A DNA stretch of 44,582 nucleotides from a virus. Taxonomy: Duplodnaviria > Caudoviricetes. The stretch covers positions 1-44,582 of the IMG/VR virus record IMGVR_UViG_3300005805_000148. One strand, given 5' to 3'. Shown here piece after piece: positions 932 to 8,289 of the stretch. A program made the position numbers and the translations under genes. Every line of letters starts with the position of its first letter. Positions within the stretch are counted from its first letter, which is position 1. The notes below the pieces were generated by a model. That model did no database searches, had not been told where the DNA came from, and was given only the letters and a program-made list of their open reading frames with translations.

Positions 932-952
932 CCTGCTTGCCTCTGCCCGTCT

Positions 953-1009
953 CCCAAAAATATGGTGCTGTATATATTTTGGATTTATTTTGGCGAGCGT
1001 TTTCCTTGG
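953..1009 (+). repeat. ~58-bp tripartite element, copy 1
   Basis: CCCAAAAATATGGT-N14-GGATTTATTT-N7-CGTTTTCCTTGG. Confidence 0.95.
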
Positions 1010-1037
1010 GCACCGGCCCGGTGCCGAAGTCCGAATG

Positions 1038-1072
1038 GGTCGGCAGGGAAAGGGAGGTGAACCCTGCCGACC
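1038..1072 (-). other. 3'-UTR hairpin H1 with anti-SD-like loop
   Basis: 11-bp perfect stem; loop on the transcribed strand UUCACCUCCCUUU. Confidence 0.85.
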
Positions 1073-1082
1073 ACTCTCGGTC

Positions 1083-1277
1083 TTAAATTATTTCTCTCTC
1101 CCAGAAGTCCTGAGCCTTTTCGTCTATCACGGTGAAGTATTTGTCCGTGTCCCAGACACTGTCCACCATAGGTATTCTGCCCATACGAAGCAGGTAGTCC
1201 GTGGCTTTTTCTACCCACGGGGTCTTTTCTACTTCGCTTAGTGCTTCCCAAAGTGTGTCCCATTTTGTTGTTGTCAT
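1083..1277 (-). CDS. hypothetical protein
   Basis: RBS AAGGAGAG before ATG 1277; alternative leaderless start at 1301. Confidence 0.75.
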   Translation of the reverse strand: MTTTKWDTLWEALSEVEKTPWVEKATDYLLRMGRIPMVDSVWDTDKYFTVIDEKAQDFWEREII

Positions 1278-1447
1278 TTCGCTCTCCTTGTTGTTTGTCA
1301 TAAGTTAATTATACACTACTGTTAGACATTTAGCAACTTGTCTAGCACTATTTTTTATTTATTTTTACCCCGCTTGCCTCTGCCCGGCGCCGAGTTGCCC
1401 GAGTAAGAGTTGGGGCTTTACGCCAACCCTTACTCGAACTCGCACGC

Positions 1448-1726
1448 TCAGACTAAGGCGTATATTGCTTTAGTCGTTGCGTTATTGGCATTACGGCGAG
1501 CATCGCTATCGGCAGTCTCGCCGTAGAACGCTTGCTTGTATATCTGCTTGCCATTGTCGTAGACGATTACCATTACGGCAGGGTCTACGAAGCCTTCGGG
1601 GTAAGCGATGTCAGCGTTGTAGTAGCACTGAGTAACTTCGCCGTATCCCTTTGGATACGCCTCTGAACTTGTCTCTACCCACTGACTTACTTGCTTAGCG
1701 CCTCTCGGCAGTCTCTTGTGTTCCAT
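1448..1726 (-). CDS. hypothetical protein
   Basis: RBS GAGAGGAAAA and own promoter. Confidence 0.8.
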   Translation of the reverse strand: MEHKRLPRGAKQVSQWVETSSEAYPKGYGEVTQCYYNADIAYPEGFVDPAVMVIVYDNGKQIYKQAFYGETADSDARRNANNATTKAIYALV

Positions 1727-1805
1727 TGTGTTTTCCTCTCGTTTTTTGTGTTGTTATTAGTATAACACTTTGTGGGGAGTTTCGCAACTCCCCACTAGTG
1801 ATTAT

Positions 1806-2066
1806 TTAGACATTTACTGAGTCGTTCATTTTGACTACTTGCTCGGCAGTGAAGTATGGCTTCACGGTATGAGCGAAGTAGCGACCTACTGACGCTTGAG
1901 TGAGCATTGGTGCTACTAGCGTGAGTGGGCAATTTGAGTAGGCATACTCAGCGCCACCAACGAACTGAACGAAGAGTGAGCCTTCGCCGTTGGCGCTATC
2001 TGAGTAGAACGCCCACTTGACGATAGCGGTGCTACCAGTTGTGGTTTGGTGGATAGTTAGTTTCAT
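1806..2066 (-). CDS. KTSC-domain protein
   Basis: ST.I...F...L.V.F.GG.EY.Y...P......AS.GRYF...VK pattern; ATG 2066 with RBS GGGAG. Confidence 0.75.
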   Translation of the reverse strand: MKLTIHQTTTGSTAIVKWAFYSDSANGEGSLFVQFVGGAEYAYSNCPLTLVAPMLTQASVGRYFAHTVKPYFTAEQVVKMNDSVNV

Positions 2067-2176
2067 TGTTATTCTCCCATTGTGTAGGTGAGGCTTGATT
2101 ACCTCACACTTATACTTTATCGTTTCCAAGCGTGTATGACAACCTGTAAATAAAAATACTTTAATTTATTTTTAGG

Positions 2177-2205
2177 TTGCTATTTGTTTTACAGTGTGCT
2201 ATACT
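2177..2205 (+). promoter_or_regulatory. plus-strand promoter with no downstream ORF
   Basis: TTGCTA-N17-TATACT with TG, back-to-back with a minus-strand promoter. Confidence 0.7.
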
Positions 2206-2274
2206 ATAAATAGCGGGGATAAAAGTGCGTGCCGGTCACCCGCTTGCCTCTGGGAAGGCTGCGCCGGCTCTTGT

Positions 2275-2331
2275 CCCAAAAATATGGTTATGTATAAATA
2301 ATGGATTTATTTAGCCGGTCGTTTTCCTTGG
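2275..2331 (+). repeat. ~58-bp tripartite element, copy 2
   Basis: Same three blocks; spacers 14 and 7. Confidence 0.95.
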
Positions 2332-2358
2332 GCCCGGTGGCCTCTGCCCGGGGGTTTT

Positions 2359-2508
2359 TTAGAGCCACTCCACGAGGTCTCCGTCAGAGATTTCGTCTAC
2401 GTCGAGACCCTGTTCTTCGGCGATTGCTTCCCAGATATCGGCTTCGATGTCACAGATAAGTCGCTTTGACATATCCATATCTATGTTGATTAGTGCTTTG
2501 TTTATCAT
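2359..2508 (-). CDS. small acidic hypothetical protein
   Basis: ATG 2508 with RBS AAAGGAA; own promoter. Confidence 0.7.
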   Translation of the reverse strand: MINKALINIDMDMSKRLICDIEADIWEAIAEEQGLDVDEISDGDLVEWL

Positions 2509-2584
2509 TGGGTTCCTTTTGTTTGGTGTAATTATAGTATAACACACTCTCAAGCAATTTGCAACTTGAGAGTGTGTTATTTAA

Positions 2585-2863
2585 TTATTTTACGATTGCT
2601 TTGTCGAAGTCAGTCTCGCCAATTCCAATGAGTTTGCGCTTTGCGAGAATTAGGTCTCGCACGGTCTCACGGTCAAGGCTGTCTCCGTCAAACTCAAACG
2701 CTGGGTTTGGGTTTGTCATATGCGCTATGCAAGCGTCGTGGATTTCGGTATCCGTTGCGAACGGATAAATTGCATTTTTTCGCTCTACTGAGTAAAACGA
2801 TTTGCAATAATCCCTAAACACCGCAAATGTTTTCATTGTTTCTACTGTAAACGCTGTTTCCAT
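2585..2863 (-). CDS. hypothetical protein
   Basis: RBS AGGAGA; own promoter; F.FDGDSLDRE.VRD motif. Confidence 0.8.
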   Translation of the reverse strand: METAFTVETMKTFAVFRDYCKSFYSVERKNAIYPFATDTEIHDACIAHMTNPNPAFEFDGDSLDRETVRDLILAKRKLIGIGETDFDKAIVK

Positions 2864-2953
2864 AATGTTCTCCTGTTTTGGTTGTTTCCTACATATATAA
2901 GTATAGGCTTGCTGTTAGACAACCACAACCTTATTTACAAAATAATTTAGAGG

Positions 2954-2967
2954 CGAACAAGTGTTCG
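2954..2967. promoter_or_regulatory. LexA/SOS-type box
   Basis: CGAAC-AAGT-GTTCG. Confidence 0.7.
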
Positions 2968-3056
2968 GCCCGCTTGCTCCTGCCCGGTGGCTAAATAGCC
3001 AGATGGCTGGTGGGGGTTTTACTGCCCCACCAGCCACAAGCGTATTGCTTGTCAGT

Positions 3057-3461
3057 TTATAGATAGCGAGCGACTGCGCCGTAAGACGAAGTGCGAACAT
3101 ACTCCTCATCAGAGAGTTCTAGCACTCGGATAGCGTTGCTGAGTTCGTTAATCGCTTCACGGTTTTTGTGCTCGTTAAAGTCGGTGTCTTTCTTTGGGAT
3201 AACCAACTTGTGAGAGAAAGTAACCTCTACTGTTTTCGCTTCCTCATCACGCCAACTGTATGGAAACTCAACTTTCTTTACTGTAAGTTTTCCTGACTTC
3301 ACAAGTGCGACTACCGACTTTTTAATGTCGGCAAGTTGTTGCTCGCGAGCCTTTTCTGCTTTGTCGTAATCTGCTTTTTCTTTTTCTGCTTTTGCTAGTG
3401 CTTTATTGAGAGCCGAAAGCAACTTCGCTTTTGGCACACGCACATTTACTGTTTTGCTCAT
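3057..3461 (-). CDS. hypothetical coiled-coil protein
   Basis: 134 aa; RBS GAAAGGT; own promoter. Confidence 0.8.
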   Translation of the reverse strand: MSKTVNVRVPKAKLLSALNKALAKAEKEKADYDKAEKAREQQLADIKKSVVALVKSGKLTVKKVEFPYSWRDEEAKTVEVTFSHKLVIPKKDTDFNEHKNREAINELSNAIRVLELSDEEYVRTSSYGAVARYL

Positions 3462-3608
3462 TATGTTTTATTACCTTTCCATTTAGTGGATACTTCTGTT
3501 TCTCCACTGATTATATTGTATCACAGATAAATTACTTTCGCAACCTATTTGTGAGATTTTTTAATTAAACTTTGCCCGCCTGCCTCTGCCCGGGGGCTTT
3601 CAGGTTTG

Positions 3609-3643
3609 GGCTAGTGGGGAAAGGGAGGTGAACCCCACTAGCC
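3609..3643 (-). other. 3'-UTR hairpin H2 with anti-SD-like loop
   Basis: 11-bp perfect stem; 13-nt loop identical to H1. Confidence 0.85.
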
Positions 3644-3655
3644 ACTCAGACCTGA

Positions 3656-3874
3656 CTATTTCTTTTTTCTGTTTTCCCATTCCTCAATGGTGAAGTCTTT
3701 ACGAGGTGGTTCGTTGCCACATTCGTAGTTCGCCGCTTCGTGCCAAGGCTTACAGTCGCACTTGCCACAGCGATACTCCATTACATCTACCTGAAAGAAG
3801 TCGTGAGTAGCAAAGTTAGCGTCTGCTTCTGCCTTACTTCCCTGAAACGGAATTGGTGCGTTTATTGTATTCAT
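3656..3874 (-). CDS. small Cys/His-containing hypothetical protein
   Basis: CGKCDC..H....C; RBS and promoter present. Confidence 0.75.
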   Translation of the reverse strand: MNTINAPIPFQGSKAEADANFATHDFFQVDVMEYRCGKCDCKPWHEAANYECGNEPPRKDFTIEEWENRKKK

Positions 3875-3980
3875 TATGTTTTTACCTCTTTCCTTTGTTG
3901 TTGATAATCTCAGTGTATCACATTAAATTAGGTTTCGCAACTCGGTTGGCAAAGATTATTTACCAACCGAGCCGAGCGAA

Positions 3981-4202
3981 CTAGACCCGAATTTGCTGGG
4001 TGGTTGTATTGACTACTTCCACTTCGCCGAACTTGCGGATAAGGTCAAACACTTCCTCGCCTTTGACGGCTGAGATGACAACGGTTATATCGGCAATCGT
4101 TAATTCGATATGCCCATTTTTTATACCGACCTTAATGTCATTTACGCTTGTATCCCACGACCAAAGCGTTGTGCTTTGCCGTGCCTTTATTTCTGTGCTC
4201 AT
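3981..4202 (-). CDS. hypothetical protein
   Basis: RBS AGGAGA; own promoter. Confidence 0.75.
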   Translation of the reverse strand: MSTEIKARQSTTLWSWDTSVNDIKVGIKNGHIELTIADITVVISAVKGEEVFDLIRKFGEVEVVNTTTQQIRV

Positions 4203-4302
4203 TATTTTCTCCTATTTGGTTGGATTAACTTACATACACACTATACCATTTCTAGGGCTGTATGACAACTTCTAAACTAAAATAAATAAAATTATTTTAA
4301 GG

Positions 4303-4331
4303 TTGCTTTTTGTCCTTAATTGTGCTACAAT
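4303..4331 (+). promoter_or_regulatory. plus-strand promoter with no credible downstream ORF
   Basis: TTGCTT-N17-TACAAT with TG, divergent from a minus-strand promoter. Confidence 0.7.
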
Positions 4332-4394
4332 AGTAATTAAGCGTTATGTGCCGACCGGCCCGCTTGCCCCTGAGCAGCCCTTGTTTGCTTCCGG

Positions 4395-4450
4395 CCCAAA
4401 ATATGGTGTTCCAAGATATTTGGATTTATTTAGCACGGCGTTTCCCTTGG
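4395..4450 (+). repeat. ~58-bp tripartite element, copy 3
   Basis: Spacers 14 and 7. Confidence 0.95.
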
Positions 4451-4457
4451 TAGATGA

Positions 4458-4494
4458 CACCGGTCGGGGGGAAAGGATGAAGGTCCGACCGGTG
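4458..4494 (-). other. 3'-UTR hairpin H3 with CU-rich loop
   Basis: 10-bp stem CACCGGTCGG/CCGACCGGTG; minus-strand loop ACCUUCAUCCUUUCCCC. Confidence 0.75.
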
Positions 4495-4501
4495 CCAAAT
4501 C

Positions 4502-4984
4502 TTAAGCGTCTACCAATTTAAACGGGCACTCGGCAACTTCCCCAAATACCGTTTCGTAAAGGTTGCGACCTGCTTGCCATTCTTCCCAATTGCCGTCTGA
4601 AGATATCTCAACGCACGAGCCGTAAATATGCTTGGCTCGTATGAGTATTGCCGTAACGACTGCGTCGTAAGGCTTGTAAGCCGTCTTACAAAAACTGAAA
4701 GTGGTTGGCTCGTCTTTGCGGTGCTCACTTATTGTTGGGATGCCTTCCCAATAAAAAGTTTCGTGCGCTTGGTCTCTGCCTTCAACATAGTGCGACGCGT
4801 CGCCGTTGATACTAAAAAAAGCCTCGTTGAACTCTGGCTCGTTTTCGCCTAGACCATTGCGAACTCGAATGCCGTTGGCATTTGCGTAGTCGCATAGTTT
4901 CTTGGCGTCTAGTGATAGTTTGCCAAACATATACGCCGAACCTGAGTTCTTGCGTGGTCTGCGCCAATAATGTGTGTATCCCAT
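4502..4984 (-). CDS. conserved phage hypothetical protein (MGYTHYW...FCKT.KPYD type)
   Basis: Motifs MGYTHYW, HETF, FCKTAYKPYD and SSDG, recognised from phage accessory proteins. Confidence 0.85.
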   Translation of the reverse strand: MGYTHYWRRPRKNSGSAYMFGKLSLDAKKLCDYANANGIRVRNGLGENEPEFNEAFFSINGDASHYVEGRDQAHETFYWEGIPTISEHRKDEPTTFSFCKTAYKPYDAVVTAILIRAKHIYGSCVEISSDGNWEEWQAGRNLYETVFGEVAECPFKLVDA

Positions 4985-5049
4985 TGTGTTGTTACCTTTC
5001 CATTGTGTTGTTGTTTACATTATACCAGAGATGAACCCAATAAGCAACC

Positions 5050-5265
5050 ACCAACAGTAGCCGTCGCTACCCACATATTGACACTCACGAGGTAGCAAGC
5101 CTCGCTATGTCAGTAGTCAGGAACACTGATTGACGGCTACAGCGTAGGAGGGAGACCGCATAAGTTCCTAGGAAACTTAATTAGACTATCGCTAGTGATA
5201 CAACGTATCGGGTGTATGACTTCTTATGTGTTGTCAGTAATTGCTTACTGGATTCATTTCCTTAC
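5050..5265 (-). ncRNA. candidate structured non-coding RNA
   Basis: Two tandem promoters (5272-5300, 5354-5382), no ORF of meaningful length and six nested or adjacent stems. Confidence 0.55.
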
Positions 5266-5445
5266 ATTTATAGTATAACATATCTGAACTGCTTTTGCAA
5301 CTCAGATATGAGATTCTTTTTAAATTCTTTTTGGCCTCGAAAGGCGTAATACCACTATACAGGTTTGTAGCACAAACAACAACCTGCTCAATTAAATTCT
5401 TTTTGTGGTCGCTCGACCACTCTGCGTGGCCTTTGGCTCCCGGCT

Positions 5446-5504
5446 CCCAAAAATATGGTGTTCCAAGATATTTGGGTTGATTTGATGTGCGGCGTTTTCC
5501 TTGG
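5446..5504 (+). repeat. ~58-bp tripartite element, copy 4
   Basis: Spacers 14 and 9. Confidence 0.95.
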
Positions 5505-5558
5505 CACCCGGGCGCCGGTGAAGGCCCTTGCTCCCGCGCGGTATTTTTTCTCGCGGGC

Positions 5559-5587
5559 CGAACATACGTTCGCCGAACACTTGTTCG
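5559..5587. promoter_or_regulatory. tandem LexA/SOS-type boxes
   Basis: CGAAC-ATAC-GTTCG (5559-5572) and CGAAC-ACTT-GTTCG (5574-5587), 1 bp apart. Confidence 0.75.
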
Positions 5588-5623
5588 GGCTGGGCTCTTG
5601 CGAACCCAACCCGAACTCGGTGC

Positions 5624-6670
5624 CTAGACTCCGAGCAACTCCAGAACCTTACGGTCTGACTGCTCGGTCTTGCCCATTAGGGCATTCATCATATTGCGCT
5701 CTACGCGATTGTCATTCGCGCCAACAATGTGGTGGTTGTAGGTGTTGAACGCTTGGAGAACTCCAAGAGCCGAACCTTTCCACGGAGCGACACGAGTGTC
5801 AAAGTTGTAGAGGCTGACCAGTTCGGCGCGCTTGTTTTCTGCGCGAGTCACTGAAGCCTTGTTTGACTGGTCTAATTCCATTTCTGGAATTGGGTTCAGT
5901 CGCTCTAAGACTTTTTGCCATTCGGCGTCACTCACTTTATGTGACGACAACGCGAGCACTTCTGCCACGATGTCATCTTTCATCGCGTGAACGATTCCAA
6001 GCGCGTCGCGTGCGCTCTGAATTTTCATTCCAGAGTTTTTGCTGTGGCGTGCTTTGAATTGGCTGGTCTTTTCGCCCATTGCCATAGCGTGCGTATTATC
6101 GCAAACTACGAAAGTGCTAACTGACTTGTAAGTCGTGGCAAGCATTCCGTTGTGGCTGGTTGTGGCGAGTAAGTGCGGACGCACTGAGAACCCGTCAATA
6201 ATCTCTACCGACTCAGGCAACTCAAGCGAGACGAACGCTACAGCGCCATCTTTTAGGAGTCCTGCCGAGCCAAAGTTGATGTCGTCATCAACAATGTTTG
6301 AGAGGTTCTGAACGAGCCACTCGCCATATTGGTGAGAACGATATCCGCCTTTGAAGATTTCCATTAAGCCGAGAGTGTCGTCGCGCAAGATTGCTTGACG
6401 ATTTTCTGCTTGAATGAACTTAATCGGGTTGCCTGCGTCATCAACGCCTGTAGCGTCGTCTAGCGTCGCTGGGACGCGGACAAACACTGGTGCGCTGATT
6501 GCTGACCACGAGAACAGCCTGCGGAGAATATCTGCCGTAGGGACTGCGCCTGTGTAGTGATTTGGCTCACTGCCTTGGAGGTCTTGGCGATAGTGCCAAG
6601 CGTGTCCACGCTCGTCGGTGTATCCGACAAGAATGTTGGAATTGAGCCATTCCATAGTTTCTGCTGACAT
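5624..6670 (-). CDS. DUF932/DUF945 (phage/plasmid-like TIGR03299-type) protein
   Basis: AWH, SAGLL.DG, LLATTSHNG, VVCDNT and RH...LG motifs. Confidence 0.85.
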   Translation of the reverse strand: MSAETMEWLNSNILVGYTDERGHAWHYRQDLQGSEPNHYTGAVPTADILRRLFSWSAISAPVFVRVPATLDDATGVDDAGNPIKFIQAENRQAILRDDTLGLMEIFKGGYRSHQYGEWLVQNLSNIVDDDINFGSAGLLKDGAVAFVSLELPESVEIIDGFSVRPHLLATTSHNGMLATTYKSVSTFVVCDNTHAMAMGEKTSQFKARHSKNSGMKIQSARDALGIVHAMKDDIVAEVLALSSHKVSDAEWQKVLERLNPIPEMELDQSNKASVTRAENKRAELVSLYNFDTRVAPWKGSALGVLQAFNTYNHHIVGANDNRVERNMMNALMGKTEQSDRKVLELLGV

Positions 6671-6834
6671 TGTGTTCTCTTTTCTGTTTGATTGGGTTGA
6701 TTGCTTACATTACTATTGTATCACTAAACTATCTGTTTAGCAACTCATTAGAAAACTTTTTTTGTAAGTCTTTTAATGAACTGATTTTAGGGTATCGATT
6801 AAATAGTAAAATACCAACCTCTAAATAGGTTTAT

Positions 6835-6855
6835 TTTTCCACAGCCTGTGGATAA
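6835..6855. promoter_or_regulatory. inverted pair of DnaA boxes
   Basis: TTTTCCACA-GCC-TGTGGATAA; the second is the perfect TTATCCACA on the minus strand. Confidence 0.7.
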
Positions 6856-6901
6856 CTTGCGGCCCGCTGCCCCCGCAGTAAGTATTTTTGGCCTCTGGTC
6901 T

Positions 6902-6959
6902 CACAAAATATGGTGTTCCAGGATATTTGGATTTATTCTATGCGCGGCGTTTTCCTTGG
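6902..6959 (+). repeat. ~58-bp tripartite element, copy 5
   Basis: Spacers 14 and 9; preceded by GCCTCTG. Confidence 0.95.
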
Positions 6960-6982
6960 CCCACGTGTGAGCCGGTCTGGGC

Positions 6983-7057
6983 CCGGGCGCCAGAAAGGGG
7001 TAAGAGCGCCCGGACCCACGGCCCGACGGGAGGCACAAGGAAGGGAAAGCCATCCCG
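6983..7057 (-). other. tandem 3'-UTR hairpins H4 and H5 with CU-rich loops
   Basis: Minus-strand loops UCUUACCCCUUUCUG (6991-7005) and UUUCCCUUCCUUGU (7035-7048). Confidence 0.7.
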
Positions 7058-7063
7058 CGCTAT

Positions 7064-7240
7064 TTAGATTAGCGCGTTGTCTTTATTTTGTGTTGCAACC
7101 TCGCTCACAAGAAGGTGAAGTCTTATGTCGAGTAGCAAGTCGGTCATTTCAGATGATGAGACAAGGTCTCTCCCAGATATTGCTGAGAGAGCCTGGTCTA
7201 CCAATTGTCTAATTGTCTCGTTGTTGTCTGTGGTCGTCAT
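7064..7240 (-). CDS. 58-aa hypothetical protein (not in ORF track)
   Basis: Manual translation MTTTDNNETIRQLVDQALSAISGRDLVSSSEMTDLLLDIRLHLL...; fills the operon gap. Confidence 0.7.
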   Translation of the reverse strand: MTTTDNNETIRQLVDQALSAISGRDLVSSSEMTDLLLDIRLHLLVSEVATQNKDNALI

Positions 7241-8039: not shown

Positions 8040-8289
8040 GTGGTTAAGGGACGGTTATATGACGGTTAAGGGACGGTTAGGTGTTAACAATTTCCCGGGA
8101 ATCCTTACTGGCTTTGGCTTAAACAAATTCTTATACCATTTTCGGGATGTCAGGTAGTCACCAGGGGGTGTCCAGTTGTCACCCCTGGGGTGTCCAGTTG
8201 TCACCCCTAGGTGTCTATCTGTCACCACTTGTGTCTCGCGTCACATACTATATGTAGGGGGGTGTCTAGTTGTCACCCCCTACATATAG
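8040..8289. repeat. iteron-like repeat cluster, candidate replication origin
   Basis: GACGGTTA x3 at 11-bp period; 22-mer GGGGTGTCCAGTTGTCACCCCT x2 exact (8165-8208) plus four degenerate copies; 14-bp inverted arms 8248-8261/8276-8289. Confidence 0.8.

Follow-up and report, generated by a model that had tools for sequence, protein, structure and literature searches.

Can a phage carry imitations of the 16S rRNA tail on the 3' ends of its own early mRNAs, and what would these imitations do there? The question is raised by five GC-rich hairpins located between positions 1038 and 7057 of the viral record IMGVR_UViG_3300005805_000148 (44,582 nucleotides (nt), analysed at full length and called here the window). 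An earlier note, made from the sequence alone, had proposed that their loops mimic the anti-Shine-Dalgarno (anti-SD) end of 16S rRNA on the transcribed minus strand. The analysis carried out on the window and its relatives has revealed a hairpin family that is confined to the early region, changes its stems with compensation, conserves loops centred on CCUU and is present in contigs from RNA libraries. The preferred explanation, held tentatively and a little short of an even chance, is that in a subset of the early-cassette 3' hairpins the loops copying the 16S tail may act in trans as chaperone-free seeds on strong Shine-Dalgarno (SD) sequences, dampening translation initiation.

The window is a 44.6-kb fragment (its source record is 58% complete according to CheckV) of a siphovirus-type phage, in which Pfam and PHROG searches with 59 proteins identified tape measure, Dit, major tail, endolysin, SNF2 helicase, ParB-like and WhiB genes. 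An actinobacterium is the likely host, as indicated by WhiB and by the DUF932 matches, which among cultured phages (533 records) are nearly all to actinophages. The metatranscriptome runs holding the stretch are of freshwater, aquatic or lake-water origin. The early region (1-15.4 kb) is an array of minus-strand cassettes, each with a promoter of the form TTGCNA-17-TA(C/T)A(A/C)T, a brief leader rich in A and C that holds a strong SD, one to a few small genes, a GC hairpin and often a repeat of about 60 nt (D1).

The five hairpins and their loops

All five hairpins were found at 1038-1072, 3609-3643, 4458-4494, 6983-7013 and 7027-7057, with stems and loops as the earlier note had described them. 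They are the following:

H1, 1038..1072, minus strand: 11-bp GC stem, loop UUCACCUCCCUUU, 10 nt 3' of the stop codon of the open reading frame (ORF) 1083-1277/1301
H2, 3609..3643, minus strand: 11-bp stem with an outer stem (about 3600-3654), the loop of H1, 12 nt 3' of the stop of ORF 3656-3874
H3, 4455..4497, minus strand: stem with one G.U pair, loop ACCUUCAUCCUUUCCCC, 4-7 nt 3' of the stop of ORF 4502-4984
H4, 6978..7018, minus strand: 3' hairpin of a tandem module, loop (U)CUUACCCCUUUCU(G)
H5, 7027..7057, minus strand: 5' hairpin of the tandem module, bulged stem, loop UUUCCCUUCCUUGU, 6 nt 3' of the stop of ORF 7064-7240

The 11-bp stems of H1 and H2 are perfectly paired, and each of the 5 differences between them is compensated; the 13-nt minus-strand loop is identical. 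A place just 3' of a stop codon, claimed for the whole set, holds for H1, H2, H3 (7 nt) and H5 and fails for H4, which lies 45-50 nt off. Folding energies were -22.6 (H1), -21.2 (H2), -18.0 (H3), -16.8 (H4) and -11.6 kcal/mol (H5), and the CCUU core is predicted to be unpaired in its context with probabilities of 0.95-1.0 for H1-H4 and 0.68-0.98 for H5.

Likeness to the anti-SD was measured as the longest run common to the 16S tail GAUCACCUCCUUUCU, which is given for several bacteria in Table 1 of PMC6288834 and whose first 13 nt are reported as the commonest tail among 20,495 sequences (PMC6107228); the tail of the host itself may differ, a 16S search of the source record having yielded none. 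The run is 8 nt in H1 and H2 (p=0.03) and 7 nt in H3 and H4 (p=0.11 and 0.08), so that the description as anti-SD mimics suits these four, with graded significance; H5, the weakest of the five and the least tail-like, shares 5 nt, no better than shuffled loops (p=0.70). Among 16 hand-picked early-region hairpins that were folded, 4 share at least 7 nt with the tail, compared with 0.3-0.5% of random 13-17-nt minus-strand segments of the early region, and the 11 others share 3 nt at most. Ordinary loops had been ascribed to those others; GNRA loops do occur in 3 of the 11, and UUCG in none of the 11 folds.

Conservation, strand and expression of the hairpin family

Relatives were collected through DUF932 (five, with 82-88% identity) and through D1 (44 viral and 119 metagenome loci), and the survey covered 178 oriented related loci with 498 distinct hairpins, 38 of them with pyrimidine loops. 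The earlier note had named a lack of loop conservation in homologous loci as evidence against its proposal; the family is kept across the related loci and, as judged by these alignments, is a real one, conserved in related WhiB-type lake phages. Of 206 strong hairpins with large loops, 42 have a run of at least 6 nt in common with the tail when read on the gene strand, and 3 when read on the opposite strand. For 32 distinct pyrimidine loops, which are related rather than independent and are located behind about a dozen upstream gene groups, the mean common run was 7.19 nt against 4.9±0.19 nt after shuffling, a value reached in none of 2000 shuffles. CCUU is present in all 32, with tail-matching runs of varying length, the selection criterion having been CCU only. 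Two classes can be distinguished, UUC(A)CCUCCUU (class I) and UUCU..CCUUUCUG or UUCCUUCCUUGUG (class II), in which the likeness goes past CCUU into ACCUCC and UUUCU, respectively, and coverage of the tail is centred on UCCUUUC, the portion reading GAAAGGA-type phage SDs.

Selection on a stem plus an exposed loop, first suggested by the H1/H2 pair, is borne out by the tandem and class I alignments, where stems change with compensation and loop cores stay. In class I (alignment A3, with 2 of 12 rows one column out of register and scored as unpaired), both sides have changed in 6 of 11 pairs and 92% of the cells are paired. In the tandem alignment the H4 loop UCU...CCUUUCUG and the H5 loop CCUU-CCUUGUG are invariant in 12 of 12 sequences and the stems vary. 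By this comparison the H5-H4 tandem behaves as a unit, because its loop cores are invariant behind six different upstream gene families; in all long loci it precedes a D1 element and the DUF932 gene. Its stems rest on per-sequence pairing, RNAalifold having failed to recover hairpin 1 of the tandem alignment because gaps shift the stems. Loop and stem can also be exchanged: an identical loop is found on unrelated stems, and one stem type carries many non-SD loops, including GNRA (24 stem-loop variants). The loop is therefore maintained separately from the stem, as an add-on to a generic 3' hairpin.

An anti-SD-like loop is retained behind the homologue of the H2 gene in L003, L005, L007 and L136, and the hairpins behind the homologues of the H1 ORF in L107 and L111 have the loops UUCACCUCCUUC and AUUACCUCCUUC on another stem. 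Six contigs (407 kb) contain 24 hairpins with CCUU-pyrimidine loops, of which 20 belong to the early region and lie on the strand of its genes. Mechanical calling of ORFs of at least 60 amino acids (aa) gave an overlap for 14 of 35 family hairpins. Outside the clade, the tandem had no match in cultured phages, the exact H1/H2 loop pattern gave two unrelated matches in IMG/VR, neither with a hairpin, and the tandem-loop pattern gave 13 matches, 4 of them in the clade, with no hairpin module in the 3 inspected of the other 9.

A second conserved loop class (ACGAGAAG.G), absent from the window, is carried by the same stem family at L003:15499-15530, L005:17602-17637 and L007:19607-19642. Long-stem hairpins with UUACCUCCUU-type loops are also located 7-25 nt 3' of same-strand stops in unrelated viral contigs (L336:1495-1530, L342:1495-1530, L440, L465, L358, L357, L434 and others). 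At L338:1475-1552 (plus strand), and likewise in L339, L341, L344, L346 and L349, the anti-SD loop UUCACCUCCUU takes the anticodon-loop place of a tRNA-shaped unit with a 7-bp acceptor-like stem, a T-arm-like hairpin and an ACCA end, directly before tRNA-Glu/Leu/Gln; neither ARAGORN nor Rfam called the L338 unit, and its folding z was just -1.0. With a minimal GGGG-loop-CCCC pattern in IMG/VR, stems of at least 8 pairs were found in 29 of 104 distinct anti-SD-loop matches and in 13 of 101 with the reversed loop (p=0.009, among the matches listed; about 39 against 30 when scaled). This excess is weak because the reversed-loop control is commoner overall (an estimated 230 against 140 stretches), the matches listed are only part and kin were not collapsed.

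The mRNA-strand orientation assumed for the loops agrees with the mismatches in the family stems, 12 of G.U type against 2 of A.C type (p=0.013; 7 against 1 after collapsing related stems, p=0.07), the ratio being 34:24 in other hairpins. RNA cover was obtained as Logan contigs from 7 of 23 listed runs (X1, X2, X4, X6, X7, X9 and X11). The remnants at contig ends, which we take to be adapter sequence, have in 7 of 7 informative cases a single polarity, the same as the ends of minus-strand genes. Contigs 90-99% alike to the window cover the early region, with depths of 2.7-12 where they bridge hairpins, namely H1 (X1), H2 (X1, X2, X4), H3 (X6) and H4/H5 (X1, X4); one contig across a site shows no single transcript, and the gap in cover over H4 in X6, X7, X9 and X11 does not prove absence. 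Five or more U within the next 10 nt were found in none of 35 family hairpins, and a terminator scan returned none of the five window hairpins. U-less terminators occur in actinobacteria. The hairpins are probably not strong intrinsic terminators, because they have no U-tracts and the contigs read through them.

Putative targets, rival explanations and known relatives of the loops

Complementarity of the loops to the phage's own early ribosome-binding sites (RBSs), of which the earlier note quoted three (the third actually reads AAGGAAAGAGGU), was found again on a larger scale: pairing over at least 7 nt occurs in 20.5% of loop and early-RBS pairs (144 RBSs) against 3.3% for other SD-bearing starts (128). 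The longest loop-RBS matches are 15 and 13 nt in L003 and 12 nt in G003. Loops with CCCUUU are found in the three genomes with AAAGGG early RBSs (2/22, 1/26 and 2/36) and in neither genome without AAAGGG (0/28 and 0/36), a hint of loop-RBS co-variation in the sequences. The proposed escape of leaderless genes was not supported, because late genes, major tail and endolysin among them, carry SDs; in two relatives, a score of -5 kcal/mol or lower was reached by 59-63% of non-early genes of at least 120 aa and by 69-78% of early genes (best of about 2 candidate starts per gene).

In the preferred explanation the early transcript would fold on the mRNA strand, its GC stem would survive as a 3' end or decay fragment, and the exposed CCUU-centred loop would pair with strong SDs without a chaperone, lowering translation initiation. 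Exposure would be greatest for the phage's own early mRNAs, whose leaders are A/C-rich, unstructured and provided with long GAAAGG-type SDs, for the mRNAs of co-infecting kin and for host mRNAs led by an SD. The shorter SDs of late genes would make these weaker targets, and the outcome would be a dose-dependent brake on early translation rather than a switch between leaderless and SD-led genes. As precedents, CcsR/cuckoo RNAs are described as derived from a 3' untranslated region (UTR) (PMC8034643) and mycobacterial 6C RNA as repressing RBSs through C-rich loops without chaperones (PMC6486639).

Several results weigh against this explanation. The 16S tail itself has the same early/late bias (34.7% against 4.7%), and the early RBS set was filtered for A-richness while the late set was not. 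Shuffling of the loop flanks made no difference to the pairing with early RBSs (0.210 against 0.205 observed), so that the complementarity comes from the tail-like core, and no target-specific tuning of the flanks was found. Because of this result and the bias of the tail itself, the loops are considered tail mimics, for which early RBSs are simply the best SDs. Within the window the best loop-RBS match is 7-8 nt only, a preference for the own genome was significant in 1 of 4 metrics (3, 20, 24 and 47 of 120 permutations; five genomes of about three lineages), and the best targets are not orthologous between genomes. One orthologous locus has an anti-SD-like loop in G005 and CAGUAAAAC in the window. 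A general SD blocker would hit SD-led late genes too. The stable 3' hairpin fragments that had been predicted were not seen: no discrete hairpin RNA or deep short contig was found on any hairpin, and contigs run through all five at ordinary depth. Their accumulation is neither shown nor excluded by this, because contigs cannot show RNAs so small, their ends or their level.

The layout of the cassettes, with promoter, small gene, GC hairpin and repeat, fits that described for PeSLs (PMC2839356), and the hairpins could be merely 3' stabilisers, attenuators or recombination stems of such cassettes, with roleless pyrimidine loops spread by duplication or conversion. One stem type with many loop types, the identical loop of H1 and H2 (consistent with copying) and the no more than modest preference of the anti-SD loop for long stems in IMG/VR agree with this account. 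It is nevertheless judged unlikely: loops of this length (13-18 nt) stabilise a hairpin poorly in comparison with the GNRA loops on neighbouring hairpins, the loop cores are invariant while the stems turn over, and the lack of U-tracts with read-through contigs speaks against its strong-terminator form. The loops could also be a recognition or cleavage site of a host or phage protein (an RNase timing early-mRNA decay through the 3' hairpin, or a C/U-binding protein), whose preference the anti-SD likeness would reflect. The universal CCUU with varying run lengths, the full exposure of the loops and the missing target-specific complementarity would suit such a site, which is held to be a rather improbable account, as the likeness follows the tail further than a 4-mer site would need (class I has ACCUCC, class II has UUUCU), no RNA-binding candidate was found among the 59 proteins with Pfam/PHROG, and no contig joints or end clusters lie at the loops, though contigs cannot resolve them.

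Actinobacterial toxins cut exactly this part of 16S rRNA, and the loops might be decoy substrates for such endoribonucleases, an RNA-based counter-defence. MazF-mt11 is reported to cleave CACCU (PMC12274833) and MazF-mt1 UCCUU (bioRxiv 10.64898/2026.10.23.761202) in the mycobacterial 16S tail, and RelE1 to cut the anti-SD region (PMC12620021). The early, strongly promoted, multi-copy placement would suit a decoy, as would the same loop on a tRNA-shaped carrier in the tRNA cluster of unrelated phages (L338). UCCUU or CACCU occurs in 24 of the 32 loops (6.6±2.2 in shuffles) and in 4 of 5 in the window, a count that does not discriminate because every tail mimic holds these 5-mers; 8 of the 32, including the conserved H4 type in two lineages, have neither. 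According to the same sources, MazF-mt1 cuts the ribosomal site alone in mycobacteria although 796 genes hold UCCUU, and RelE1 needs the assembled 30S and leaves free 16S rRNA uncut. The decoy account is considered improbable; if true, it would constitute a new class of counter-defence. A function on the plus strand, where the hairpins fold nearly as well and show loops such as AAAGGGAGGUGAA, was the alternative offered in the earlier note, with SD/GGA-rich loops on an antisense RNA as ribosome or CsrA-type decoys. It is given very little credence because the G.U bias and the adapter polarity both fit the mRNA strand; no plus-strand ORF of at least 45 aa begins behind a loop, and D1 has no consistent -35/-10 spacing on that strand.

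Among these explanations, pairing with SDs is preferred, and the best inference is that the hairpins may work like known anti-RBS loop RNAs, outside the cuckoo and 6C families. They would be anti-RBS seeds grafted on PeSL-like 3' hairpins, a formulation to which slightly less than an even chance is again assigned. As in the cuckoo/CcsR RNAs of Alphaproteobacteria (RSs0680, Rfam RF02344 ar14) described in PMC4615179 and PMC8034643, the stems vary with compensation around an anti-SD-like loop that stays fixed, and the hairpins follow a small gene in its 3' UTR. Cuckoo RNAs have 2-4 adjacent hairpins that each display the motif loop; the conserved H5-H4 pair is reminiscent of their form with two hairpins, and H1-H3 are single. 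Unlike cuckoo, they are phage-encoded and mostly single over many cassettes, their loop core is CCUU, ACCUCCUU or CCUUUCU, with the cuckoo motif CCUCCUCCC in none of 32 distinct loops, no Rfam match was obtained at E<=1 and no DUF1127 was found among the 59 window proteins; a discrete RNA cut from the 3' UTR by RNase E is characteristic of cuckoo. With 6C RNA of Actinobacteria (PMC6486639) they share C-rich loops on GC stems, a likely actinobacterial setting and, as proposed, chaperone-free pairing to purine-rich RBSs. They differ in having no Rfam match and no own promoter, a longest C run of 4 in the window loops, where 6C RNA has two loops with long C runs, and loops that copy the 16S tail instead of matching G-run targets.

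The PeSL cassettes of the T4-type phages RB49 and phi1 (PMC2839356) likewise have a plastic early region in which small ORFans are separated by a repeated strong sigma70-like promoter and a stem-loop with G/C runs. They belong to another phage group, and the hairpins described here are upstream of the promoter boxes, not over them; termination is not evident in the window, and section 13 of that paper mentions no anti-SD loops for PeSLs. RNAs with anti-SD loops are already known from bacterial chromosomes. No paper was found on a phage family with such loops on many early-cassette 3' hairpins, although catalogues of predicted phage RNAs and supplements, which were not covered, may list it. If the loops work, they would give the phage a protein-free handle on translation initiation, and the question left open in the cuckoo paper, global or specific SD blocking, could be tested with 35-nt RNAs. 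In a broader and doubtful view, 16S-tail mimics would be spread by phages over the 3' ends of those early mRNAs that are made most strongly, together forming a distributed system of RNAs that titrates anti-SD readers. It would either outcompete ribosomes on mRNAs with an SD (those of the host, the phage's own early ones and those of superinfecting kin) or serve as a decoy for tail-cutting host toxins, a form of RNA-based counter-defence; the similar loops in unrelated phages, one of them on a tRNA-shaped carrier, would reflect convergent use.

Other elements of the early region

The genes next to the hairpins, the D1 copies that follow them and a further structured RNA are the following:

1083..1301, minus strand: small early ORF, 64-72 aa, with H1 in its 3' UTR; no Pfam/PHROG family
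3656..3874, minus strand: small early ORF, 72 aa, with H2 in its 3' UTR; no Pfam/PHROG family; best Atlas score 0.86, unnamed
4502..4984, minus strand: early ORF, 160 aa, with H3 in its 3' UTR; no Pfam/PHROG family
7064..7240, minus strand: small ORF, 58 aa, preceding the H5-H4 tandem
5624..6670, minus strand: DUF932/TIGR03299 gene, with its own hairpin at 5583-5616 (GCAA tetraloop, no anti-SD loop)
951..1010, no strand assigned: D1 repeat, copy after H1
4392..4451, no strand assigned: D1 copy directly after H3
6899..6958, no strand assigned: D1 copy directly after the H5-H4 tandem
5032..5258, minus strand: structured non-coding RNA of about 225 nt; long closing stem formed by about 5255-5233 and 5055-5035, further hairpins inside, and a C-rich stretch CUCCCUCCU at about 5145-5153
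5272..5300, minus strand: predicted promoter of the 225-nt RNA, TTGCAA-17-TATACT with extended -10 (consensus match only)

Homologues of ORF 3656..3874 are present in 5 of 5 long relatives compared. The start site predicted for DUF932 lies some 55 nt downstream of the point (about 6761-6765) at which RNA contigs of X2, X4, X7 and X9 end, which suggests a second upstream promoter or a strain difference.

D1 has fixed-spacing boxes, lies at module junctions and is confined to early regions, with nine co-oriented copies in the window (951, 2273, 4392, 5444, 6899, 10391, 13494, 15515 and 16463, the last extending to 16509) and 9-13 core copies in three relatives. It was rejected as a plus-strand sigma70 promoter, the -35/-10 spacing not being conserved. 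The D1 pattern led to no host genome in GTDB, where 11 single matches in unrelated taxa were taken as chance. A shorter GC-rich repeat, D5, resembles the last box of D1 and is located at 497-516, 1367-1386, 2969-2988, 3574-3593 and near 18-35; in several early promoters it immediately precedes the AT-rich part. A 22-nt repeat present four times and a 14-bp inverted repeat lie at 8165-8289, between an RHH gene and an Api92-like gene, as a possible operator or origin. The contig opens with a C-rich low-complexity stretch (1-60). In the window, no tRNA or tmRNA was found, PADLOC returned generic helix-turn-helix matches only, and Rfam gave two weak off-target matches (E 0.46 and 0.73) and none at E<=1 over the hairpins.

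The 225-nt RNA was treated as an element separate from the hairpins because its C-rich stretch is not consistently exposed: CUCCCUCCU, examined as a candidate anti-SD loop, is free in part of the homologues and base-paired in the rest. Among 9 distinct sequences, 23 of 45 pairs have changed on both sides and 98% of the cells are paired, the structure being derived from the same alignment as this count. Three related contigs spanning the early region were searched, and each holds the RNA once. It has no conserved ORF, no Rfam family (one match with E 3.8 on the wrong strand) and no similarity in any cultured phage. Its conserved 17-mer gave at least 120 matches, and none outside the clade extends to a homologue by nhmmer or covariance model (100 sources in one search). 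A retron non-coding RNA was discarded, PF00078 being found in 0 of 5 related records (38-79% complete) and no reverse transcriptase among the window proteins.

A contig confined to 5051/5071-5228/5233 reached depths of 624 (X6), 675 (X7) and 1982 (X11), the deepest other contig listed being 49.5. The 225-nt RNA is apparently very abundant in lake samples, although X6, X7 and X11 come from one year and habitat, perhaps from a single campaign, and RNA level is poorly reflected by contig depth. In its bin, mean depth was 1.7-3.4 in X1, X2 and X4 and there was no cover in X9, which is no proof of absence. The contig ends at 5233 and 5051 lie at the inner limit of the closing stem and fit reverse-transcriptase stops on intact RNA or an RNase III-type cut. 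Great abundance, lack of ORFs and an early promoter are also described for early RNAs of the cluster A mycobacteriophages L5, D29 and StarStuff and of Rhodococcus phage WC1 (PMC5712189, PMC10986025), which are about 500 nt long, against about 225 nt with a long closing stem here, and have no sequence similarity to the 225-nt RNA. With 6S and Ms1 RNA (PMC9130861) it shares size range, abundance and a long stem joining the 5' and 3' ends, and it differs from them in a multi-branched interior instead of a rod with a central bubble and in giving no Rfam match.

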